Under the pieces are notes generated by a model, which was not told where the DNA came from, did no database searches, and saw nothing but the letters and a program-made list of their open reading frames with translations. A DNA stretch of 64,000 bases from Desulfurococcales archaeon (GTDB lineage Archaea; Thermoproteota; Thermoprotei_A; Sulfolobales; WANQ01): positions 18,479-82,478 of the forward strand of contig JALVFK010000086.1 in NCBI GenBank assembly GCA_027030065.1, written 5' to 3'. Positions 3,920-21,927 of the stretch are shown piece after piece. Position numbers and translations under genes: made by a program. How positions within the stretch are numbered: the stretch's first letter is position 1; each line of letters opens with the position of its first letter.

Positions 3920-6739
3920 ATGAATTTAAAACTAATAGGAATTCTATCTCTACTACTAATAATACTACCAACGTTCGCGGTATTCGCTCAAGCCCAACAA
4001 GAAATCAAGGGCCCACCCCTAGACCAGATAATATACACTGTTAGAACAACGATAGACAGAGGAGTCCTTGACGTAGCAGATGGTAAGATAGACGCGTTTC
4101 TATGGACGGTCTCACCAAGAGACCTTAAACAAATACCAGTTGATCTGGCAAAGCTCAAGCTAATACCTTCATCAAGCTCACTCAACGCGCTATTATTCAA
4201 CCCCTATAGTGATGAGGACGAGGCTGGTAAGTGGGGTGTAGCAACAGACATTGACGATAATACAAAGCACTTCAACCCATTCGCAGTAAGAGAAGTAAGA
4301 TTCGCTATGAACTGGCTAATTAACAGGAGATACATCATAGACAACATAATGGCTGGTGGAGCCAACCCAATGTATTGCCCAATAGGTCCAAGCCACCCAG
4401 CATACCCGCAAATAGAATCTGCACTCAAGGAGCTAGGGTTAACAGATACTGGTGACGAGGCAAAAGCTATACAAATGATAACCAATGCTCTCCAGAACGC
4501 CTCACAGCACCTAGAGGCACTAGGCTACAAGCTCTACAAGGCAGATGATGGTTTCTGGCACTTCCAAGCACCAGGACAGGACGACGAACCCGTAACAATA
4601 ACATTTCTCATTAGAATCGAGGACGAGAGAAGAGACATTGGTCATTACGTAGCCGATCAGTTAGAGAAGGCTGGCATAAAGGTCAACCGTATGGAGATAG
4701 AGAGAGGACAAGTATTCGCACTAGTATACGGTAAGGATGCTAGAACCTTAGACTGGCACATTTATACAGAAGGATGGATAAGCACAGCTGAGAGCCCATG
4801 GATCGAAGGAGACCTAGCATGGTACTACAGCCAGTGGGGTGGCCCACTACCAGGCTGGGGTACCTGGGAGTACACGCCAGACCACGCTAAGGCTATAGGA
4901 GACAATATTCAGCCAAAGATAGAGGAACTAACACTAGACCTATACCAGGGCAAGTATAAGGGCGACCAATACTGGGAGGTTGCCAGAGAAATAATAAAGC
5001 TGGGAATTGAGGAATCAATTAGAGTATTCCTAACAGAGAACCTAGCATACTTCCCAGTCAACCCAAGAGTACACGACATAGCAGCTGGTAGAAGCACTGG
5101 TCTAGCAACAATATGGCCCTTCAGAACAGCATGGACAGATGACGGAGTACTTCTAGTAGCCCAGTATTCATCACGTGGAGCATTATTCATGAGTGCTTGG
5201 AACCCGGTAGGCGGTATTAATGACATCTATGCAAGCAATATATGGAGATATGTAAGAGACTATGGAGGCTACTGGCATCCGTCAACTGGTATATACATAC
5301 CAATAAGAGTAACATGGAAAGTACAAGTAGAGAACATGACAGTACCAGGTGACGCACTAATATACAACCACTCAGCCCACAAGTGGCAGACACTTGATGA
5401 AGCTGGTGTAACAGACCGCAATGCTACAGTAAAGGTAATATTAAACTACAAGTTCAGCAACTGGCACGACGGTAGACCAATGACACTATTCGATATACTA
5501 GAATCAATAGCATGGAACTGGGAGTGGAGCTACCAGGACGGTGCAGACGACATATGGTACCACGACGAAGTAGCAAGCACTGGACAACCATACTTCAGCA
5601 CCATAAAGGGCATAGAGATAATAAACTCAACAGCAATAGCATTCTATGGCAACTATACTCATCCAATAAGTGAGTCAGAGACAGCAAGCTACTACATATG
5701 GTGGCCAACCTTCCCACTAGAAGTAATGGCTGCAATGGAGTACTGTGTACTATACAAGGGACCAGTAAGCGGTGAAACCTATGGCTGGTTTGAGGGAGAT
5801 GCTGGCAGATGGATAGACGCACTAGACCCAGACCACTTAACAGACATAACAGCCGCACTAGAACAGAAAGTAGAGACTGGAGAATACATGCCACCATACC
5901 TAGCAGCAACCTACGACCTAGCTAAGAAGTACCCAGTAATAGGGTCAGTAGACCTAGCAGACGCTGCTAAGAAGGCATTAAACTTCTACAAGGAATACGG
6001 ACACCTAGTAATAAGCAACGGTCCATTCTACATAGCTAAGTATAACCCAACAGAACTATACCTAGAGCTCAAGGCCTTCAGAGACCCAACATATCCATTC
6101 ACACCAGACTACTGGAGAAACAAGCTAATACTAAGCACTCTATTCATACAAGAAGTATCGCTGCCAACACAGATACTAGCTGGACAGAGCATACCAGTAA
6201 CAGTAAAGGTCGGTGAAAACGTACAGTTCCCAGAAACAGAGAAGGGTACTAGACCAGCAGAATTCGCTTATGTCGACGTAGCGTTAATAGCACCAGACGG
6301 TACTGTAGTAGGAGTATGGTCTGCTAACAAGACAGACATAGGTGTATGGCAGGCAACAATACCTGGTAGTGCCACCAAGAACTTAGCAAGTGGTACATAC
6401 ACAATAGAGATTAGAATAGGAAGAGAACCCGGCGTATACCAGGTAACCGAGAAGAAGCAGATAACAATAATAGGAATACAAGTAACAACAACACCTACAA
6501 CTGCACCAACAGTAACTGCACCGACAATCACGCAGCCAACTACAACTGCACCATCACCAACAACAAGTGTTAGCCCAACAGTAACAGTACCCTCAACAAC
6601 GTCGCCAGCTACATCAGTACCAACGGTAACAACGATAACACCTACTGGTCCAGGAATAAGTCCAACAGTAATCATAGGGATAGCAATAGTCATAATAATC
6701 ATAGGTATTGCAGCAGCCTTCCTAGTAAAGAAGAAGTAA
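3920..6739 (+). CDS. ABC transporter substrate-binding protein, family 5 (Opp/Dpp-type), C-terminally anchored
   Basis: Signal/TM 'LIGILSLLLIILPTFAVFAQA', a large family-5-like body, and a Thr/Pro-rich linker 'TTTPTTAPTVTAPTITQPTTTAPSPTT' followed by a TM helix and 'KKK'. First gene of a 5-gene ABC operon. Confidence 0.85.
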   Translation: MNLKLIGILSLLLIILPTFAVFAQAQQEIKGPPLDQIIYTVRTTIDRGVLDVADGKIDAFLWTVSPRDLKQIPVDLAKLKLIPSSSSLNALLFNPYSDEDEAGKWGVATDIDDNTKHFNPFAVREVRFAMNWLINRRYIIDNIMAGGANPMYCPIGPSHPAYPQIESALKELGLTDTGDEAKAIQMITNALQNASQHLEALGYKLYKADDGFWHFQAPGQDDEPVTITFLIRIEDERRDIGHYVADQLEKAGIKVNRMEIERGQVFALVYGKDARTLDWHIYTEGWISTAESPWIEGDLAWYYSQWGGPLPGWGTWEYTPDHAKAIGDNIQPKIEELTLDLYQGKYKGDQYWEVAREIIKLGIEESIRVFLTENLAYFPVNPRVHDIAAGRSTGLATIWPFRTAWTDDGVLLVAQYSSRGALFMSAWNPVGGINDIYASNIWRYVRDYGGYWHPSTGIYIPIRVTWKVQVENMTVPGDALIYNHSAHKWQTLDEAGVTDRNATVKVILNYKFSNWHDGRPMTLFDILESIAWNWEWSYQDGADDIWYHDEVASTGQPYFSTIKGIEIINSTAIAFYGNYTHPISESETASYYIWWPTFPLEVMAAMEYCVLYKGPVSGETYGWFEGDAGRWIDALDPDHLTDITAALEQKVETGEYMPPYLAATYDLAKKYPVIGSVDLADAAKKALNFYKEYGHLVISNGPFYIAKYNPTELYLELKAFRDPTYPFTPDYWRNKLILSTLFIQEVSLPTQILAGQSIPVTVKVGENVQFPETEKGTRPAEFAYVDVALIAPDGTVVGVWSANKTDIGVWQATIPGSATKNLASGTYTIEIRIGREPGVYQVTEKKQITIIGIQVTTTPTTAPTVTAPTITQPTTTAPSPTTSVSPTVTVPSTTSPATSVPTVTTITPTGPGISPTVIIGIAIVIIIIGIAAAFLVKKK

Positions 6740-8133: not shown

Positions 8134-9690
8134 ATGATTAGGATAGACTGGAATGAGGTTAAGAAAAAGGCTAGAGAATTCTGGAGCGAGTATAGGAGGT
8201 TCAAGATAGGCTTAATCGGCCTAGGCCTACTAGTCATACTAGTCTTCATGGCTATAATACCCTCATTTATCTTTCCACCGGAAACATATTATAACTGGAA
8301 TAATTATCCTGGATGGGAATATAATCCTAGGCTAGCGCCACCGGAATGGGTAAATTTGTTCTCATCGAAGAAGTATACGCCTCCTAAGACAATCGAGCCT
8401 ACAAAGATGGAGGGGTTATGGCAATACTATGCAGAAGTATACATTAAACTTAACAATATAACCGATGAAAATTTGAAGAAGCAAGTCTACGAGGTCTTTA
8501 AACAACAAATGGCTGGAAAAGGCTATGTATACTACTATGAATATGATTTCAAGTGGGATATACCGTCAAGCGATCTAGTAATAATAGTAAGTAATGTCTC
8601 AACAACAATAAAGCTAACATTAGGTATACAGAGGCCACCCTCACCATATAACGGTCAACTATTGAATGTATCACTGTATCCAGCATTTACTACAACAGTT
8701 ACTCCCACAAATGGTACCGTGCTAATACACTTAGCTAACAGTGATCAATTAATGCAAGCGCTGATAAAGAACTATATATCAAAGTATGAGAGTCCCGATA
8801 TATTCAAGAATGCAACCGAAAACAACATCTTATCAGCAAATGTGTTAAGCCCCGTAACACTACTCTTCTATGCTCCAGGACCAGGAATGATCTATGGTCA
8901 GCAAGGCGTTACCAAAGGAGTATACAAGTTCAATATAACCGTAGAAGCAACTAATGGTTCACTAGAGTATCCTCCGGTAATAAAGATAAGAATTCCTGGA
9001 AGCTGTTATGGCCTCCTTGGAACAGATTTCCGTGGGAGAGACATATTCGTGGGAATACTATGGGGTAGTCGTGTAGCATTAATGATAGGTATAACCTATG
9101 CTGTCTCAGTAGTTCTCATAGGATTAATCTATGGTGTTGTTAGCGCATATGCTGGAGGTCTAGTAGACGAGGTAATGCAGCGTATAAATGAGGTCCTCTA
9201 CTCTATCCCACTACTACCATTCCTAATATTGTTCGCTTATACTATAAGACAACTATATGGTACACTGAGCGTATGGCACATTATAGGAGTACTGATAATA
9301 TTCGCGTGGACTGGTCTAGCAATAGTAGTGCGTAGCATGGCCTTACAGATAAAGGAACAGCCCTTCGTGGAGGCGGCTAGAGCTATAGGTGCTAGTGGTA
9401 GGAGAATAGTATTCAAGCACATACTACCACAGCTAATGCCCTACGCCTTCGCTAGTATGGCTCTCGCCGTTCCCGGCGCGATATTAATAGAAGCTGGTTT
9501 AAGCTTCCTCGGATTAAGCGACCCCAACATACCGACCTGGGGTAAGATGATCTACGAGGCGCAGAACTCGCTATCATCTTGGTGGTGGGTACTCTCACCT
9601 GGGCTAATGATAGCAGTAACTGGTATGGCGTTTGTCTTCATAGGGAATGCGTTAGACACCATACTTAACCCGAGGCTGAGGAGACTCTAA
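8134..9690 (+). CDS. ABC transporter permease (OppC/DppC-like) with a large extracytoplasmic insert
   Basis: 'AARAIGASGRRIVFKHILPQLMPYAF' loop, six C-terminal TM helices, and a ~250-aa N-terminal loop after TM1. Confidence 0.9.
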   Translation: MIRIDWNEVKKKAREFWSEYRRFKIGLIGLGLLVILVFMAIIPSFIFPPETYYNWNNYPGWEYNPRLAPPEWVNLFSSKKYTPPKTIEPTKMEGLWQYYAEVYIKLNNITDENLKKQVYEVFKQQMAGKGYVYYYEYDFKWDIPSSDLVIIVSNVSTTIKLTLGIQRPPSPYNGQLLNVSLYPAFTTTVTPTNGTVLIHLANSDQLMQALIKNYISKYESPDIFKNATENNILSANVLSPVTLLFYAPGPGMIYGQQGVTKGVYKFNITVEATNGSLEYPPVIKIRIPGSCYGLLGTDFRGRDIFVGILWGSRVALMIGITYAVSVVLIGLIYGVVSAYAGGLVDEVMQRINEVLYSIPLLPFLILFAYTIRQLYGTLSVWHIIGVLIIFAWTGLAIVVRSMALQIKEQPFVEAARAIGASGRRIVFKHILPQLMPYAFASMALAVPGAILIEAGLSFLGLSDPNIPTWGKMIYEAQNSLSSWWWVLSPGLMIAVTGMAFVFIGNALDTILNPRLRRL

Positions 9691-15065: not shown

Positions 15066-16316
15066 TTGTCCAGCCTCAAAATACCCAAGATACCGACCAT
15101 AGATGACTATGATATAAGGGAGAGCAAGGTTCTAGTTAGAGTAGACTTTAACAGCCCTATAGACCCCAAGACTGGTAAGATACTCAATGATTTCAGGATA
15201 AGAAGTCACGTTGAAACACTTAGAGAACTAGTAGTTGATAGAAAATGTGCAGTAGTAGTTATATCACATCAAGGTAGACCTGGAGAGAAAGACTTTACAA
15301 CACTAGAGGAACATGCTAAAAGACTATCAGAGTACTTAGGCCTGGATGTAGAGTTCATAGAGGACGTTATGGGACCAGCAGCTCGTAATAGGATAAAAGA
15401 GCTTAGAAACGGCGAAATATTAATGCTCGACAATGTTAGAATGGCTTCTGAAGAGCTACTAGAAGCTATACCAGAGAAGCAAGCAGAAACATTTATTGTT
15501 AGAAGACTTGCACCACTATTCAACTACTATGTAAATGATGCATTTGGTACAGCACATAGAAGTCAGCCAAGCATAGTGGGATTCCCATTAAAACTACCAT
15601 CAGCAGCAGGAAGGCTTATGGAAAGAGAAGTAAATGCACTACGCCGGGCTTTCGAGGAATCATCTGCTCCACGAGTATTTGTTTTAGGTGGTGGAAAAGT
15701 CTATGATTCTCTAAGAATAATCGAGTACCTCGTTAAGAACAAGATAGCTGATCGAATACTAACAACGGGCCTAGTAGCCCAGTTATTCCTAGTAGCAAAA
15801 GCAGTAAACATAGGCTTAGCCAACAAGAAATTCCTCGAGGAGAAAGGAGTCTTAGCACTAATATCAAGAGCACGTAGAATACTATTATCAGGAGCACCCA
15901 TAGAAACCCCAATAGACTTCAAAACACTCGTAGACAACGAGGTTAGAAACGAGACTATAGGCAACATTAAAGGACTCATAATGGATGTAGGAGAACAAAC
16001 AATACAAATGTACTCAGAACTCATGAAGGAAGCCAACGTAATAGTTGTTAGAGGCCCAGCGGGAGTAATAGAGGATCCAAGATTCCGAGAAGGTACTGCA
16101 AGAATACTAAACTCTGCTCTCGAAACAGAAGCCTTCGTCATAATAGGTGGTGGTCATTTAGCCGTATTAGCTGATCAGGAGAAAATGAAAAGTAGAGGTA
16201 ACGTACATTTATCAACGGGCGGTGGGGCTCTCCTCTTATTCCTAGCTGGTGAAGAACTTCCAGCCCTCTACGCGCTTAATAAGTCCGCTAAAAAGTTCTT
16301 GGGGTGGAAGGATTGA
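15066..16316 (+). CDS. pgk: phosphoglycerate kinase
   Basis: 'VRVDFNSPID', 'ISHQGRPG', 'AFGTAHR' and 'STGGGALL'. Confidence 0.95.
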   Translation: MSSLKIPKIPTIDDYDIRESKVLVRVDFNSPIDPKTGKILNDFRIRSHVETLRELVVDRKCAVVVISHQGRPGEKDFTTLEEHAKRLSEYLGLDVEFIEDVMGPAARNRIKELRNGEILMLDNVRMASEELLEAIPEKQAETFIVRRLAPLFNYYVNDAFGTAHRSQPSIVGFPLKLPSAAGRLMEREVNALRRAFEESSAPRVFVLGGGKVYDSLRIIEYLVKNKIADRILTTGLVAQLFLVAKAVNIGLANKKFLEEKGVLALISRARRILLSGAPIETPIDFKTLVDNEVRNETIGNIKGLIMDVGEQTIQMYSELMKEANVIVVRGPAGVIEDPRFREGTARILNSALETEAFVIIGGGHLAVLADQEKMKSRGNVHLSTGGGALLLFLAGEELPALYALNKSAKKFLGWKD

Positions 16317-17341
16317 AGATCCTTGTAAACGGGTTTGGGACTATAGGTAAAAGAGTTGCATGGGCTATAACCAGACAAGACGATATGAGTCTCTACGGGA
16401 TAGTTAAAACAAAGCCCGACTATGCTGCTCTCGTAGCCATTAAGAACGGTATCGACATATATGTTCCAAGCGAGGAATCACTGAGACTCTTCGAGGAAAA
16501 AAACGTTCCAGTAAAGGGGCTATTAACGGAGGCTTTAGAGAAGGTAGACCTGGTAGTAGATGCCACGCCTGCAAAAATAGGTGCAAAGTACAAGGATCTC
16601 TACAAACAATATGGTGTTAAGGCAATATTCCAGGGAGGAGAAAAAGCAAATGTAGCTGAAGTAAGCTTCAACTCCTACTGTAACTACGAGCAAGCGCTAG
16701 GTAAAAACTATGTCAGAGTAGTAAGCTGCAATACTACTGGGCTCCTACGTCTCCTATGTACATTAGATAAAGCAGTAGGGGTTGAGAAGGTTCGAGCCCT
16801 CCTAGTTAGGAGAGCCGCCGACCCCAAAGAGATAAAGAAGGGCCCGATAAACGCTATTGTCTTAGACCCACCCAATCCGCCAAGCCATCATGGAGAAGAT
16901 GTGAAAACAGTTGTGCCAAACTTAGACATATTGACCTATGCTGTTGTAGTCCCAACAACGCTCATGCATATGCACTATTTAGTAATAACTCTAAAAGACT
17001 ATGCCTCGAGAGCAAAGATAATAAGCGCATTAGAGGATGCTTCGAGAATCCTACTTGTAGACTCCTCAAGACTATCATTGAAGAGTACTGCCGAGCTAGT
17101 AGAGCTTGCAAGAGATCTTGGGAGACCTAGAAACGACTTCTATGAACTCCTCGTATGGGAGAACAGTATAACAGTTAATGGTAGAGAATTAATGCTGGTA
17201 CAATCAGTTCACCAAGAAGCAATTGTTGTACCAGAAAACATAGATGCTATAAGAGCTATGCTGAAACTAGTTGAAGACCCATTAGAAGCTATAAATAAAA
17301 CCGATAAGAGCCTAGGAATAACTGGGAGGCTGATAAACTAA
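16304..17341 (+). CDS. gap: archaeal-type glyceraldehyde-3-phosphate dehydrogenase
   Basis: 'VNGFGTIGKRVA' Rossmann motif and catalytic 'SCNTTGL'. 13-nt overlap with pgk. Confidence 0.95.
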   Translation: MEGLKILVNGFGTIGKRVAWAITRQDDMSLYGIVKTKPDYAALVAIKNGIDIYVPSEESLRLFEEKNVPVKGLLTEALEKVDLVVDATPAKIGAKYKDLYKQYGVKAIFQGGEKANVAEVSFNSYCNYEQALGKNYVRVVSCNTTGLLRLLCTLDKAVGVEKVRALLVRRAADPKEIKKGPINAIVLDPPNPPSHHGEDVKTVVPNLDILTYAVVVPTTLMHMHYLVITLKDYASRAKIISALEDASRILLVDSSRLSLKSTAELVELARDLGRPRNDFYELLVWENSITVNGRELMLVQSVHQEAIVVPENIDAIRAMLKLVEDPLEAINKTDKSLGITGRLIN

Positions 17342-17766
17342 TGACATATCCATTAGAACCATCCTACGAGCTAGGCTTTCGCTTTAGGAAAATATTAGTG
17401 CCTATTGATGGAAGTGAGAGTAGCCTAAAAGCACTTGACCTAGCAGTAGACTTAGCTAAAAGATACGGCTCGAAAATAACAGTAATACATGTAAAGACCC
17501 CTGGCTCAAAGTTAAGTAAGAGTATCTTGGATAAAGCTAGGAAAAGAGTTGAGAATAAAGGTCTCCCAGTATCTTTTAAAGAAGTAGAAGTAGACTATAA
17601 TACTTCTAGTATCTCTAAGGAAATACTCGATGAAATAATTGATGGAGGATATGATCTAGTAGTACTGGGGGCAAGGGGGATGACCGTAAGCGAGGAATTA
17701 AATATAGGAAGTGTAGCAACGTCAGTGGTATTAAATGCGCCGACAACAGTAATAGTAGTAAGGTAA
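17341..17766 (+). CDS. universal stress protein (UspA family)
   Basis: 'ILVPIDGSESSLKAL', 'LVVLGARG' and 'GSVATSVV'. TAATG junction with gap. Confidence 0.85.
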   Translation: MTYPLEPSYELGFRFRKILVPIDGSESSLKALDLAVDLAKRYGSKITVIHVKTPGSKLSKSILDKARKRVENKGLPVSFKEVEVDYNTSSISKEILDEIIDGGYDLVVLGARGMTVSEELNIGSVATSVVLNAPTTVIVVR

Positions 17767-18184: not shown

Positions 18185-18559
18185 ATGTCGTCCGAAGAAT
18201 TATTTTTCTATGGATTAATAGCAGTAATCCTTGGATTAGGAATACCACTGGTAGTGCTAAGTATACTTAGACTATGGATGACTCATAAAGCATTAAAACT
18301 CTACGCAAAACACATAAAAGCTACAATGAATCTGCCCGAAGTAAAGAAGTTTATAGCCACGATAAAGAAGCCCTACATAGAAGTCGATGAAGACAAGAGT
18401 AAATCGCAAGTACTAGTCATCTGGAGAGATAGTAGGAGAAGAGATATTTATCCATCTGTATGGGTGTACGTTGATAAAAACACCATAAAACCGTTAAAAA
18501 TAATAGTGTATAGTGAGGACCCACATAAAAAACCGAGTACGAGAACGCTTCCAACATAA
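18185..18559 (+). CDS. hypothetical protein with N-terminal TM anchor
   Basis: 'LFFYGLIAVILGLGIPLVVLSILRLW' TM helix, then a basic soluble domain. Last gene of the pgk-gap string. Confidence 0.5.
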   Translation: MSSEELFFYGLIAVILGLGIPLVVLSILRLWMTHKALKLYAKHIKATMNLPEVKKFIATIKKPYIEVDEDKSKSQVLVIWRDSRRRDIYPSVWVYVDKNTIKPLKIIVYSEDPHKKPSTRTLPT

Positions 18560-18845: not shown

Positions 18846-19766
18846 ATGGTACTAATAGGAGGATTTGATAGAATACTATTATCGGCATCACCACGCAAGT
18901 ATACTTTAATTGAAGTATGTCTAAGAGTTGAGAAGAACGTAGTACTGCCACCCTTTACAGGCAAAGTACCCAAGAGTCTCTTAATAATAGGTAACTCTAA
19001 ACTATATGATATATTTGAAAAACCATTTATAGTGGAATATGATGGTGCTAAAATACAAGTTCCTAAACCCCTCCGAGTAACGCCACTATATATTCGTAAT
19101 AATGGGGATGTAAAGTACTTGTGGAAAAAGAAAAGTGGGGGGCCATCATTAAGGCTTAGGAAGGATACTACTGCTTGCTTTAAGATAGGATTTGAGGAGG
19201 GGTTGGAGAGAGACATATATTACGCTGTAGCAGGCATGGATAATGCTGTTCTCTTTGACGCGAAATGGATTATAGAAAGTGTTAGAGTTGAAAAATCATT
19301 TAAACTCCCATCACAGTATCCTGGAGTATCATTAGAGAATATTAGTGGTGTTAGGGTTTTCTTCCGGTCGCCCATAAAACTCGTAGACCCCTGGAAAAAG
19401 ACACGATACGGTAGGTTTCTACCAATAGCGGGAGTATTATTTGCATACAATATCGGTGAATTATTGAGACTGTTGAAGAGAGACATAGAGTACTGGTATG
19501 TTGTAAGCATGGTTTCAGCAGCTCTTCGCGAAACCCACAGGATATGGGAGACCGTTAAGAAAACAACCTATGTCTACGATGGGAAAGAACTCCCGGCATT
19601 ATCGGGTTACGCTACCTACCTAGTAGACGACGAGATAATAAACGGTATTAGGGGGTTTAGAGTATTCCTTGAAAACATTATTGCACACGCAATGGTAATG
19701 GGGATTGGAAGTAGTAGGGCAATAGGATTAGGTCACGTCGACATATACTTGTTGGAGAGAAACTAG
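18846..19766 (+). CDS. Cas6-like RAMP protein (orphan, no array nearby)
   Basis: C-terminal glycine-rich loop 'MGIGSSRAIGLGHV' (GxGx5GxG as in Cas6), N-terminal 'YTLIEVCLRVEKNVVLPPFTGKVPKSLL', and a mid-protein 'VFFRSPIKLV' strand. About 300 aa. Confidence 0.5.
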   Translation: MVLIGGFDRILLSASPRKYTLIEVCLRVEKNVVLPPFTGKVPKSLLIIGNSKLYDIFEKPFIVEYDGAKIQVPKPLRVTPLYIRNNGDVKYLWKKKSGGPSLRLRKDTTACFKIGFEEGLERDIYYAVAGMDNAVLFDAKWIIESVRVEKSFKLPSQYPGVSLENISGVRVFFRSPIKLVDPWKKTRYGRFLPIAGVLFAYNIGELLRLLKRDIEYWYVVSMVSAALRETHRIWETVKKTTYVYDGKELPALSGYATYLVDDEIINGIRGFRVFLENIIAHAMVMGIGSSRAIGLGHVDIYLLERN

Positions 19767-19805
19767 TATTCTGCTATTATTTCAAGTTCTACGTTAACCG
19801 CAACC

Positions 19806-19817
19806 TTTATTATTTTT
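19806..19817 (+). promoter_or_regulatory. TATA-box candidate for the low-complexity cassette
   Basis: TTTATTATTTTT is centred about 38 nt upstream of ATG 19849. A GGGTGA Shine-Dalgarno-like element lies 5-10 nt before the ATG. Confidence 0.35.
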
Positions 19818-19848
19818 GTGCAACTGCACAGAATTCTTGGGTGAAAAT

Positions 19849-20154
19849 ATGGCCTGGTGGTATGGACCCGGATACGGCTTCGGATGGGGATGGCGTGGAG
19901 GAAAAGGTGGATGGGGTAGAGGAGGCTGGCGTGGATGGGGATGGAGTAGTCCATGGCCTGGTAGAGGACCCTTCAGCTACCTACCACCGTGGCAGAGACC
20001 CGGCTGGTATCTAGGTAGAGGATTCTGCAGATGGTATTATGGATGGGGCTGGTGGCGCTGGCCAACTCCATGGTACTGGAACATACCAACATATCCAGTA
20101 TATCCGCCATACACTTCCTACACCTATCCGCCATACCCGTGGTGGAGGTGGTAG
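19849..20154 (+). CDS. Trp/Gly/Arg/Tyr/Pro-rich low-complexity protein (101 aa, about 21% Trp)
   Basis: ATG at 19849 preceded by GGGTGA. 'GFGWGWRGGKGGWGRGGWRGWGW' repeats and a PY-rich tail, with no Asp/Glu. The ORF track start at 19816 is probably too early. Confidence 0.6.
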   Translation: MAWWYGPGYGFGWGWRGGKGGWGRGGWRGWGWSSPWPGRGPFSYLPPWQRPGWYLGRGFCRWYYGWGWWRWPTPWYWNIPTYPVYPPYTSYTYPPYPWWRW

Positions 20155-20158
20155 GGAA

Positions 20159-20374
20159 ATGAGCTACCCATACCCCTACCCACTCTATCCTCCCGCGTAC
20201 CCCTATCCATACCCGTTGCCAGTAGATCCAGCATATATGATGTACTGGATGATCCAGTGGATAACATATCCATACTATTATGCGCTAACACTAGAAATGT
20301 ATAAGACAATGATAGAGGTTTGGAAGAAAACACTAGAAGCATTAACTAAAACACTAGAACAGAAAACAAGCTAA
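20159..20374 (+). CDS. Pro/Tyr-repeat protein with C-terminal amphipathic helix (71 aa)
   Basis: In-frame ATG 4 nt after the previous TAG, preceded by GGAGGTGG. 'YPYPYPLYPPAYPYPYPLP' then 'LEMYKTMIEVWKKTLEALTKTLEQ'. Confidence 0.5.
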   Translation: MSYPYPYPLYPPAYPYPYPLPVDPAYMMYWMIQWITYPYYYALTLEMYKTMIEVWKKTLEALTKTLEQKTS

Positions 20375-20386
20375 GAGAGGATAACC

Positions 20387-20749
20387 ATGTACTGGTGGTA
20401 TAGGTTTTGGAGAAGAATGATGTATTATCCACCACCGCCCCCACCAATCTATTATCCACCTTACCCCTATCAATACCCCTATCAGCAAACCCCCCAGCAA
20501 GCACAGCAACCACAAACTCAGCAGCAACAACAGCCAATACCTCTAACACCATATTATCCACCCATGCCGATGCCACCACTACCACCATATCCGCAGACAC
20601 CAGAAGAAGAACTAGCAATGCTTGAAGAATACAAGAAGGCATTAGAAGAAGATCTAAAGGATCTCCAAGAAGAGATTAAGAGCGTAGAGGAGAGAATCAA
20701 GGAATTAAAGAAAATCATTGAGGAAAGGAGAAGAAATACCCCATTCTAA
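20387..20749 (+). CDS. aromatic/Pro/Gln-rich protein with C-terminal coiled coil (DUF5320-like)
   Basis: 'MYWWYRFWRR', 'PPPPPP', 'QQTPQQAQQPQTQQQQQP', then the heptad coiled coil 'EEELAMLEEYKKALEEDLKDLQEEIKSVEERIKELKK'. Confidence 0.65.
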   Translation: MYWWYRFWRRMMYYPPPPPPIYYPPYPYQYPYQQTPQQAQQPQTQQQQQPIPLTPYYPPMPMPPLPPYPQTPEEELAMLEEYKKALEEDLKDLQEEIKSVEERIKELKKIIEERRRNTPF

Positions 20750-20772
20750 ATTTTTCTCCAATAATCTTTTTC

Positions 20773-21927
20773 TTAGTCTAGAGGAGAATAACCTGTTCTA
20801 AGTATTCTACGATACTCTAGATCCGTTTCCTTCATCTTGATGATCCTTGCCTTCACTACACCGTTCTCAAGAGTTGTAACTTGAGCTAATGCTACATGTA
20901 CTCCGAGCTTATCCATATATTCTATGAATTCGTCTAGTACTTTTATGTCTGGTACCCTTATAATGTATTCCTCGTATACAGCTCCTCCTTCTTCTATCAA
21001 CTTTATACTATCAATTGCTGGTTTTAGTATCGATAAACCGAGTCTCTTAGCTCTCTCTTCGAGTTCCTCTTCACTTAATCCTTCTTCATAGATCTTCCAT
21101 ATCTCACGTAGTATCCGTGAGAAAAGGAATCCTCTGCCTTCATCAAAGGGGTATTTCATTCCAAGCTCTAAGTCGTGAAAATGTGTATAGCTTGTAGTAT
21201 ACTTTAATGCTTTTACACGATGCTTGGGGTCCTTTAACACTATTCCCTCTCGCTCTTCTCTCTCAAGCTTACGGATAATCTCTTTCACAGAATCTAGATC
21301 GTTTTTATCTATGACTCCAAGTCTTCTAACACGCTTTAATCCAACATCATCTATTATCTCGTTTCTCTCTGTTACTGGTATGAAGAATCTACCACGCATT
21401 ATATCGAATACATAGTAGTCGAAGGTAGGAGCTTCCGGATAATAATGTTGTACATAGGGGTTTTCAGTCCCAATAACCTCACCGCATACAACAAGGTCTT
21501 CTCCATATTTTTTAAACAAGTTTCTCAAGAACTCCTCGTAAAGCATTCTTATCCTAGCAGTAGTGTATGGGCATATGTATCCTCCACGCGTAATAGCTAG
21601 TATTTGATCGGCGAACAATACTACTCTAACATTATATCCGTCAAGTTTTTCTTCAACTACTACGTCGTCTATGAAGTGTCTAGGTATTGCTTTAAGTAAT
21701 AGAATTCTCTGAATACTAGGATAACCATGTACTATCCTAACTTCTCCATCCTTAACAAGTATTGTTGTACCCTCCCTAAACTTCTTCCACTCACGTCTAA
21801 AGACTAGATAACCTATACCATGATACTCCATTGGTCTAAGCGTACGCCTCTCTATAAGGTCTTTTAGGACTCCTTCCTCTATGCCTAGCTTATTGGAAAC
21901 ACTCTTAAGTATATTATTAAGAGCCAA
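20773..21927 (-). CDS. ATP-dependent RNA ligase, Rnl3 (Pab1020) family
   Basis: Nucleotidyltransferase motif I 'VVEEKLDGYNVRV'. About 380 aa, with the N- and C-terminal domain layout of archaeal RNA ligases. Confidence 0.8.
   Translation of the reverse strand: MALNNILKSVSNKLGIEEGVLKDLIERRTLRPMEYHGIGYLVFRREWKKFREGTTILVKDGEVRIVHGYPSIQRILLLKAIPRHFIDDVVVEEKLDGYNVRVVLFADQILAITRGGYICPYTTARIRMLYEEFLRNLFKKYGEDLVVCGEVIGTENPYVQHYYPEAPTFDYYVFDIMRGRFFIPVTERNEIIDDVGLKRVRRLGVIDKNDLDSVKEIIRKLEREEREGIVLKDPKHRVKALKYTTSYTHFHDLELGMKYPFDEGRGFLFSRILREIWKIYEEGLSEEELEERAKRLGLSILKPAIDSIKLIEEGGAVYEEYIIRVPDIKVLDEFIEYMDKLGVHVALAQVTTLENGVVKARIIKMKETDLEYRRILRTGYSPLD

Follow-up and report, generated by a model that had tools for sequence, protein, structure and literature searches.

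Introduction

DUF5320 (Pfam PF17253) is an uncharacterised protein family of bacteria and archaea, and the literature consulted on DUF5320, DUF134, UPF0251, the related COG numbers and the Pfam accessions contained nothing functional. Eukaryotic RGG/GW scaffolds, such as the FUS-type RGG domains and the GW182-type GW repeats, are low-complexity scaffold proteins of a similar appearance. NifX-like proteins of COG1433 (PF02579), which will be seen below to accompany DUF5320 in archaea, are functionally uncharacterised outside nitrogen fixers (PMC2954228). The DNA analysed in this work is a stretch of 64,000 nt, hereafter the window (positions 18,479–82,478 of contig JALVFK010000086.1, assembly GCA_027030065.1), from a Desulfurococcales archaeon. 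It was found to carry at 19849–20749 a cassette of three co-oriented genes, ORF1, ORF2 and ORF3, whose Trp-, Gly-, Arg-, Tyr- and Pro-rich products had been assigned in a preliminary description to a DUF5320-like architecture for which no function is known. The literature agrees with the latter statement, and the coordinates, spacings, residue counts and motifs quoted for ORF1–ORF3 were all exact on recheck.

Compared with PF17253, ORF1 is homologous to the head-plus-core half of the archaeal members, and the loci related to the window share with the family a neighbourhood of DUF134, NifX-like and MinD-like genes. The window differs in that its proteins score below the Pfam threshold, in that the domain is split over separate genes with the tail of ORF1 replacing the coiled coil, and in that ORF2 has no counterpart in the Pfam family. 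NifX-like proteins of the COG1433 type share the coiled coil and the Gly/Arg(/Tyr/Met)-rich low-complexity segments, whereas the three window proteins lack a NifX-like domain. The likeness to the eukaryotic RGG/GW scaffolds is compositional only. The grammar is the same, with Gly and Pro separating Arg and aromatic residues in sequence predicted to be disordered, but no homology was detectable, the DUF5320-type family is defined by an invariant 18-residue motif and not just by repeats, and its context is one of metal-cluster genes and not of RNA silencing. Nothing was found in support of the earlier analogy with Argonaute and RNA interaction modules, the conserved context consisting of NifX-like and Fe-S ATPase genes. 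What is already known is DUF5320 as an uncharacterised family; what is new is the split three-gene form with the ORF2 family.

A split DUF5320-type protein

ORF1 (19849–20154, + strand, 101 aa) encodes the head-plus-core subunit and ORF3 (20387–20749, + strand, 120 aa) the coiled-coil subunit of a split DUF5320-type protein, and ORF2 (20159–20374, + strand, 71 aa), a member of a conserved family outside the Pfam and NCBIfam models, lies between them. A protein search with ORF1 returned 185 homologues with E-values down to 2e-13, many carrying a precomputed PF17253 assignment, and the PF17253-positive proteins P0006, P0008, P0015, P0018 and P0024 were matched through a shared core at E = 1e-10 to 1e-8. 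The window proteins stand further from the Pfam model: at E up to 1, neither ORF1 nor ORF2 had a match in Pfam, and there was none in NCBIfam, while ORF3 reached 18.5 bits (E = 0.0046, residues 64–99 on profile positions 63–98; cut-off 27), with PF17253 among its best three Pfam matches. Coiled coils attract weak non-specific Pfam matches, and many other families also appeared below threshold for the window proteins. The score of ORF3 is probably this low because its long linker breaks the alignment. Among the ORF3-type relatives PF17253 was the best Pfam match in 12 of the 12 tested (21–37 bits), and those of loci L080, L081, L086 and L015 lay above the threshold (31.7–37.4 bits).

As ORF1 matches the heads of fused DUF5320 proteins and PF17253 tops the ORF3-type relatives, the cassette can be read as a split DUF5320-type protein. 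On sequence comparison it is a gene split plus an extra component, that is, a known family in a three-gene form that includes ORF2. The earlier assignment to a DUF5320-like architecture over co-oriented cistrons was thus borne out by the homology of ORF1 to the N-terminal halves of PF17253 members and by the PF17253 matches of ORF3-type relatives, although the Pfam search proposed with it succeeded with relatives and not with the window proteins. The accompanying notion of an expansion over three cistrons stood as far as the head/core and the coiled coil are placed on separate genes; the rest is a split with ORF2 added, not an expansion.

Two forms were distinguished in 81 loci, and they were mutually exclusive. 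In the fused form, one protein comprises the head, the core, a linker of Pro, Thr and Gln, and the coiled coil at its C-terminus; P0006, P0016, P0024 and P0092 are of this kind and score 27.3–32.3 bits against PF17253 (cut-off 27). In the split form, a core protein with an uncharged Tyr/Pro/Trp tail is accompanied by a separate ORF3-type coiled-coil gene nearby. Such a separate gene was present within 1.5 kb in 64 of 72 split loci and in 0 of 9 fused loci (p = 9e-8, Fisher, uncorrected for phylogeny). For these counts the coiled-coil hidden Markov model (HMM) was built from the matched segments only, since genuine fusions otherwise draw it into NifX-like proteins. In the window the head/core and the coiled coil are not one polypeptide, and the order ORF1–ORF2–ORF3 recurs in L011, L020, L024, L063, L068, L074, L075 and other loci.

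The cassette is widespread in archaea and is not peculiar to the window genome. Scanning one genome of each species for the peptide PFSYLPPW gave 180 confirmed stretches in species-representative genomes, from Thermoproteota/Desulfurococcales, Bathyarchaeia, Nitrososphaeria, Hadesarchaea, Methanomethylicota, Korarchaeia, Thermococci and Hodarchaeaceae and also from two bins labelled 'bacterium'. A HMMER search with ORF1 residues 1–65 against 1.84 billion representatives retrieved 34 clusters at E up to 1e-3, its reach being limited because a short query was set against a huge library. One of these clusters, P0140, was a spurious repeat protein and was set aside. No relatives were present in the viral contigs searched, and PDB sequence and profile searches with the ORF1 and ORF3 family alignments found no solved relative, only generic coiled-coil noise at E >= 0.01.

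One of the two 'bacterium' bins (JASEIO010000075, locus L085) encodes at 1402–1863 a protein in which a bacterial-type head, GDRTGPWGLGPMTGRAAGYCAGY (PF17253 at 1–56, 58.5 bits), precedes the archaeal WPGRGPFSYLPPWQRPGW core, and this protein links the bacterial and archaeal head types. As ORF1 is unmatched and L085 matches only at 1–56, the Pfam model seems to cover the archaeal WPGRGPFSYLPPWQRPGW core poorly. Loci L016, L080, L081 and L086 contain two more DUF5320 paralogues (for example L080 8159–8509 and 8526–8780) with the heads GYRWRRMYY.TGLPGW and RFPWLPRWWW on the same coiled coil, which suggests interchangeable heads on a common oligomerisation module.

The three proteins

ORF1 contains 21 Trp, 21 Gly, 16 Pro, 13 Tyr and 9 Arg but no Asp or Glu, which gives a net charge of about +10. 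Trp accounts for 19–21% of the protein, some 17 times the mean of the long ORFs of the window (1.2%). The earlier remark that a value near 20% lies outside the normal range is therefore correct for proteins at large, yet it is typical of the family, in which Trp has a median of 16.7% and a maximum of 25.9%. To our knowledge, Trp contents of about 17–26% are among the most extreme compositions of conserved prokaryotic proteins. The head (aa 1–35; 19849–19953, + strand) is rich in Gly, Trp and Arg and has GW/RGG repeats including GFGWGWRGGKGGWGRGGWRGWGW, after which the sequence runs on to a Pro/Tyr-rich tail; heads across the family contain 30% Gly, 18% Trp and 11% Arg. The core (aa 36–60; 19954–20028, + strand), WPGRGPFSYLPPWQRPGWYLGRGFC, is the near-invariant motif of the family. 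Alignments across archaeal phyla define it as WPGRGPFSYLPPWQRPGW..GRG.C, or W-P-G-(R)-G-P-F-S-(Y)-L-P-P-W-(Q)-R-P-G-W followed by G-R-G-x-C. The columns W36, P37, G38, G40, P41, F42, S43, L45, P46, P47, W48, R50, P51, G52 and W53 of ORF1 were invariant, and R39, Y44, Q49, G56, R57, G58 and C60 were at least 90% conserved. The HMMER search, which used no pattern, disclosed mild variants of the core, e.g. WPGKGAWSYIPPWERPGW.

The tail of ORF1 (aa 61–101; 20029–20151, + strand) is uncharged and rich in Trp, Tyr and Pro, ends in WWRW, and stands where fused relatives have the linker and the coiled coil. Tails of the family average 28% Tyr, 21% Pro and 15% Trp, and of 71 short forms, 51 have a C-terminal Trp, 26 a C-terminal WW, and 51 no acidic residue at all. 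ORF1 was predicted by AlphaFold2 to be disordered (pLDDT 51, pTM 0.18). The structure and disorder prediction that had been proposed thus gave a disordered ORF1 and, as described next, a helical ORF2, although the ORF1 model itself is of low confidence.

ORF2 opens with MSYPYPYPLYPPAYPYPYPLP and consists of a disordered Pro/Tyr-rich N-terminus, a DP motif and a helix-break-helix with an aromatic first helix. AlphaFold2 predicted residues 1–21 as disordered and helices at 24–36 and 45–70, with pLDDT up to 87 in the second helix. A single match, P0123, was present in a large protein database, and it was with an HMM built from the fetched DNA loci that the family was traced in 37 loci. There ORF2 always adjoins an ORF1-type gene and never occurs in fused loci, and its carriers belong nearly all to Thermoproteota-type lineages or to Culexmicrobium. 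In the alignment W55 is invariant, D23, P24, K57 and E60 are at least 90% conserved, and the second helix carries the motif E.Y(K/R)..(I/L)(D/E).W(K/R)K..E. A similarity between ORF2 and ORF3 appeared in uncorrected tblastn, but profile-profile comparison by hhalign gave a probability of 16% over 11 columns, which does not establish homology. ORF2 is not demonstrably related to DUF5320, and is a previously unrecognised third subunit family.

ORF3, which starts with MYWWYRFWRR and contains PPPPPP, a Gln-rich tract and a coiled coil, was aligned with relatives (17 sequences). Its aromatic-basic head, MYWWYRFWRRMMYY (20387–20428, + strand), has M1 and R6 invariant and R9 at least 90% conserved, and in the short relatives the PF17253 alignment begins at this head, at profile position 46–47. 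The linker (20429–20596, + strand), first Pro/Tyr-rich and then Pro/Gln-rich, includes QQTPQQAQQPQTQQQQQP. The coiled coil, TPEEELAMLEEYKKALEEDLKDLQEEIKSVEERIKELKKIIEER (20597–20731, + strand, from the alignment), has the invariant columns E75, L79, E80, Y82, E87, E96, R103, I104, E106 and L107. The consensus of the ORF3 type is a head M.WW.R.WRR and an almost invariant coiled coil PEEEL.MLE.YKK.LEE.L..L.EE......RI.EL; the same module also ends the fused DUF5320 proteins and is present in NifX-like fusion proteins. Cys is absent from ORF2 and ORF3. A Gln-rich tract of variable length was recognisable in 11 of the 17 aligned ORF3 sequences, the window included, and not in the other 6. The prion-like Gln tract of the preliminary description is accordingly to be regarded as a variable-length Pro/Gln linker and not as a conserved Gln/Asn-rich domain. 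Its description as unexpected in a hyperthermophile would draw on the affiliation of the window with Desulfurococcales metagenome-assembled genomes, the sole basis for that label.

Two side observations concern Cys residues next to the core. The ORF1-type genes at L003 5733–5969 and L005 631–867 are sample variants of one gene that differ at three Cys positions (FRGCWLLWCWYGC and FRGGWLPWYWYGY), so that the Cys after the core is not strictly required in this lineage. P0137 and P0142 have an RG head and the core joined to a motif with three Cys at the C-terminus (HM.C..FN.G.C.L.G......G.AC..F), possibly a metal-binding module.

Coding evidence

All three ORFs are almost certainly real genes of the split DUF5320-type family. 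Their frames are kept in L001, L002, L007 and L008 (94–99.6% DNA identity) and in L009 (79%). Ratios of non-synonymous to synonymous substitution rates (dN/dS) were calculated by the Nei-Gojobori method in the claimed frames, comparing L002, L007, L008 and L009 with the window, and ranged overall from 0.00 to 0.19. By gene the range was 0.05–0.19 for ORF1, 0.02–0.08 for ORF2 and 0.00–0.07 for ORF3; against L009 the values were 0.05, 0.02 and 0.07 respectively, at a dS of 1.1–2.3, and against L002, L007 and L008 they were 0.00–0.19. The check on frame-specific conservation that had been suggested earlier therefore came out in favour of the claimed frames. The starts also agree with conservation. 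In L002 a 1-nt indel 5' of the ORF1 ATG breaks a longer TTG-initiated frame and leaves ORF1 intact, the longer alternative starts (112 aa from TTG 19816; 111 aa from ATG 20039) are not the conserved ones, and homologues begin with MAWW.. and MSYPYP... Over 82 copies of the core, codons varied synonymously at every degenerate position, with six codons for Leu and always AGY for Ser; because synonymous codons vary so freely, selection acts on the protein of the ORF1 core. Structured RNA, which the preliminary description had named as the alternative to coding, was not indicated: Rfam gave no match at E up to 1 over 19600–20900, and the RNA of ORF1 folded like its shuffles (z = +0.07), with no excess folding.

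Public gene calls skip the ORF1-type genes of L002, L003 and L006. At L002 588–893 a 50-aa Asp/Gly/Val-rich ORF in another frame (601–753) is called instead, the gene at L003 5733–5969 has no call at all, and at L006 ~750–923 a neighbouring gene is extended across it. The segment 19841–20014 of the window is among the places noted for such missed calls. As gene callers often miss genes of the ORF1 type, the family is under-represented and under-annotated in protein databases.

Genomic context and the NifX-like proteins

In the 81 loci the neighbours were DUF134 (50 loci), NifX-like proteins of the Nitro_FeMo-Co family (45), MinD-like Fe-S ATPases (29) and a zinc-ribbon protein (15); these counts are lower bounds, since contig ends cut many loci. 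The family identities were verified by Pfam (PF02001, PF02579 and CbiA/ParA with Fer4), and DUF134, the NifX-like proteins and the MinD-like ATPases are presumably COG1342, COG1433 and COG1149. The MinD-like ATPases are usually encoded by a tandem pair of genes, and a 2x[4Fe-4S] ferredoxin domain is inserted in each product; DUF134 is a sigma-70 region-4-like helix-turn-helix.

NifX-like proteins fused to DUF5320 modules were found 11 times and in both domain orders. The order head, coiled coil, GYG/RG linker and NifX-like domain occurs at L015 8193–8891, L032 8250–8990, L040 1859–2575, L045 283–1023 and L067 2672–3328, and the order NifX-like domain, GMGRG linker, Pro-rich linker and coiled coil at L018 7272–7877, L039 9181–9759, L043 7736–8323, L080 8781–9368, L081 8375–9016 and L086 4161–4745. 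The L015 protein (8193–8888) matches both PF17253 (32.7 bits) and PF02579 above threshold. NifX-like proteins thus often carry RG-rich low-complexity segments that match those of the cassette together with the coiled coil, and the excess of RG/GW-rich 20-residue windows extends to other neighbours: 27 of 62 NifX-like ORFs, 11 of 50 DUF134 and 5 of 17 zinc-ribbon ORFs have one, as compared with 0 of 67 MinD-like and 2 of 653 other long ORFs (p = 1e-7 to 1e-29). At the level of the family, a physical and functional link of the DUF5320-type proteins to the NifX-like proteins is likely.

Two Desulfurococcaceae loci, L051 and L061, are partially syntenic with window 16304–17766, in that a GAPDH and a universal-stress-protein gene stand near the cassette; unlike the window, they have NifX-like and DUF134 genes directly 5' of the ORF1-type gene. 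This arrangement suggests that the lineage of the window lost or moved the two genes.

Proposed function and alternatives

The best explanation as a whole is a split DUF5320-type operon that provides a scaffold or adaptor for NifX-like carriers, a reading that falls a little short of an even chance; the mechanism by which it would act is put forward somewhat more tentatively still. ORF1, ORF2 and ORF3 would reassemble into one oligomeric particle, oligomerisation being supplied by the coiled coil of ORF3, and the aromatic, Pro-rich ends (the tail of ORF1 and the fronts of ORF2 and ORF3) would replace the covalent linker in holding the pieces together. The particle would display several disordered Arg/Trp/Gly heads and copies of the invariant core, and would serve as scaffold or adaptor for the metal-cluster-binding NifX-like (COG1433) proteins, working with the MinD-like ATPases, with their two [4Fe-4S] ferredoxin inserts, under the DUF134 helix-turn-helix regulator. 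The invariant core would most likely be the docking motif for a conserved partner, and the RG/GW/Tyr-rich segments may provide multivalent cation-pi contacts by which similarly tailed clients are gathered.

A stronger version, in which the DUF5320-type proteins scaffold a heat-stable archaeal assembly without a membrane, be it a condensate or a defined multivalent particle, is improbable. Cation-pi and aromatic contacts would drive such an assembly together with coiled-coil oligomerisation, and it would recruit the RG/GW/GYG-tailed NifX-like carriers, the zinc-ribbon protein and the DUF134 regulator; concentrated with the Fe-S ATPases, these clients would form a metal-cluster compartment, with WPGRGPFSYLPPWQRPGW as the docking code.

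Several points weigh against the scaffold for NifX-like carriers. No DUF134, NifX-like, MinD-like or zinc-ribbon gene was found within the 64 kb of the window by locus-built HMMs and tblastn; the partner genes may lie elsewhere in the window genome or be absent, and as no partner gene is in the window the NifX-like link is less sure for this genome than for the family. About ten other loci showed the bare triple only, within the stretch fetched. The assembly of the three proteins into one particle is proposed from the order of the genes and the pattern of fused and split loci; as the loci are not phylogenetically independent, the Fisher p-values make the significance look greater than it is, and the invariance of PFSYLPPW, eight residues of the core, is partly by construction in a locus set gathered with that peptide, although the flanking invariant residues are not so fixed. 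Metal-cluster handling is an inference on an inference, because COG1433 is itself uncharacterised, and no experiment on a member of the family was found in the literature.

The family, with at least 180 stretches in species-representative genomes from several archaeal phyla, now has a testable frame, made up of the near-invariant 18-residue motif, the NifX-like fusions and the RG-rich tails on several neighbour proteins, and the fused-versus-split pattern predicts a physical complex of ORF1 and ORF3. Were the scaffold reading true, the system of COG1433 proteins and MinD-like Fe-S ATPases in anaerobes, which is likewise uncharacterised, would become more accessible to study, and there would be an archaeal case of low-complexity-driven assembly at high temperature.

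The alternative that survives best, though unlikely, is nucleic-acid binding, in which the basic RGG/GW protein ORF1, oligomerised via ORF3, would bind RNA or G-rich DNA and work together with DUF134 as a chromatin-like or regulatory factor whose targets are simply the NifX-like and ATPase genes. The charge and the RGG-type repeats of ORF1, the 51 of 71 short family members that have neither Asp nor Glu, and the rank of DUF134 as the commonest neighbour (50 of 81 loci) all agree with it. So do the RNA-related flanks of the window, a Cas6-like gene and a Pab1020-type RNA ligase gene, but these are common only to near-identical relatives. The DUF134 and DUF5320 proteins of M. mazei are listed among matches to a putative G-quadruplex-binding RG motif (PMC7565180), which is a motif match with no experiment. 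In addition, the most conserved part of the protein, PFSYLPPWQRPGW, is not basic and bears no likeness to a nucleic-acid-binding motif, and the fusions join DUF5320 modules to NifX-like domains and not to DNA- or RNA-binding domains.

Direct binding of a metal or Fe-S cluster is more doubtful. The Cys of GRG.C, clustered by coiled-coil oligomerisation, would ligate a cluster or ion at the subunit interface, and the DUF5320-type proteins would be cluster carriers or chaperones and not scaffolds. C60 is kept in at least 90% of the aligned family members, a similar GR..GYC element occurs in the bacterial DUF5320 head and stands beside the archaeal core in L085, P0137 and P0142 carry their C-terminal three-Cys motif, and many of the neighbouring genes encode Fe-S or cluster-binding proteins; in L003 a gene for a DtxR-type iron-dependent repressor (Fe_dep_repress) is directly 5' of the DUF134 gene. 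Each chain, however, has only a single conserved Cys, and even this one varies: P0075 of Thermococcus lacks it, L048 and L079 have it at a shifted position, and the L005 variant of L003 has lost it. In the split form the Cys-bearing ORF1 has no coiled coil of its own, ORF2 and ORF3 contribute no Cys, and no known cluster-binding motif was detected in the window proteins with Pfam and NCBIfam.

It is very improbable that the products are precursor peptides for post-translational modification, for instance to Trp/Tyr cross-linked or quinone-type cofactors, or secreted or envelope aromatic peptides. Small proteins of extreme aromatic and Pro content, with an invariant short motif that could serve as a recognition sequence, would suit such a role, and L069 has a CxxxCxxC radical-SAM-like ORF downstream. 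This ORF occurs in 1 of the 81 loci, no modifying enzyme, protease or transporter is conserved beside the cassette, the sequences show no evident signal peptide or classic transmembrane segment, and the coiled coil and the NifX-like fusions fit structural subunits and not cleaved precursors.

That the stretch is non-coding, whether it be structured RNA, an element that forms G-quadruplexes or a set of chance ORFs in DNA of odd composition, has next to no probability, and as a sole explanation it is refuted: the DNA of ORF1 has 57% G+C against 40% for the window, with many GG/GGGG runs, and ORF1-type genes are skipped by public gene callers, but the low dN/dS in the claimed frames (with a dS of 1.1–2.3 against L009), the protein motifs kept across archaeal phyla under synonymously varying codons, and the Rfam and folding results all speak against it.

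Features of the window

The signals around the cassette fit one archaeal transcription unit for ORF1–ORF3. A candidate archaeal TATA box, TTTATTAT, is at 19806–19813 (+ strand), ~39 nt 5' of the ORF1 ATG, and Shine-Dalgarno-like motifs precede each gene on the same strand. The GGGTGA of ORF1, reported earlier and confirmed at 19839–19844, is 4 nt 5' of the start and is kept in L002 although a 1-nt indel adjoins it; a putative GGAGGTG for ORF2 is within the 3' end of ORF1 at 20144–20150, and a putative GAGG for ORF3 is at 20377–20380, 6 nt 5' of its start. A candidate oligo-T terminator of archaeal type, with two T5 runs (20751–20755 and 20767–20771), lies 3' of the ORF3 stop at 20751–20771 (+ strand). 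The ORF2 start is 4 nt from the TAG of ORF1 and the ORF3 start 12 nt from the TAA of ORF2; in relatives ORF1 and ORF2 overlap by as much as 9 nt or stand as much as 21 nt apart. Translational coupling of the three ORFs is a suggestion that we infer from spacing alone. Ranked by content of Trp, Tyr, Pro, Gly and Arg, the 191 window ORFs of 50 aa or more are headed by ORF1 (0.72), ORF2 (0.41) and ORF3 (0.41), in that order, the long ORFs having a mean of 0.22 and a maximum of 0.31.

The nearest relatives of the window are a Thermoprotei bin, JALWGO010000117 (98%), and a Desulfurococcales bin, JALUDQ010000014 (97%). A Cas6-like ORF at 18846–19766 (+ strand), with weak Cas6_N and CRISPR_Cas6 matches below the Pfam thresholds and a Gly-rich C-terminal loop, lies 5' of the cassette; no CRISPR array, other repeat array or tRNA near it was found within the 64-kb window. 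A Pab1020-type RNA ligase (RNA_ligase and Lig_C domains) is encoded at 20773–21927 (– strand), convergent with the cassette, and its adjacency is kept only in the near relatives L001, L002 and L007–L009. As only near-identical relatives share them, the two flanking genes represent lineage synteny with no conserved link, and they were rejected as a functional clue. An imperfect direct repeat with a 15-nt period, four copies of a CAACTGCACCAACAG-like unit, occurs at 6492–6630, probably within a coding region.

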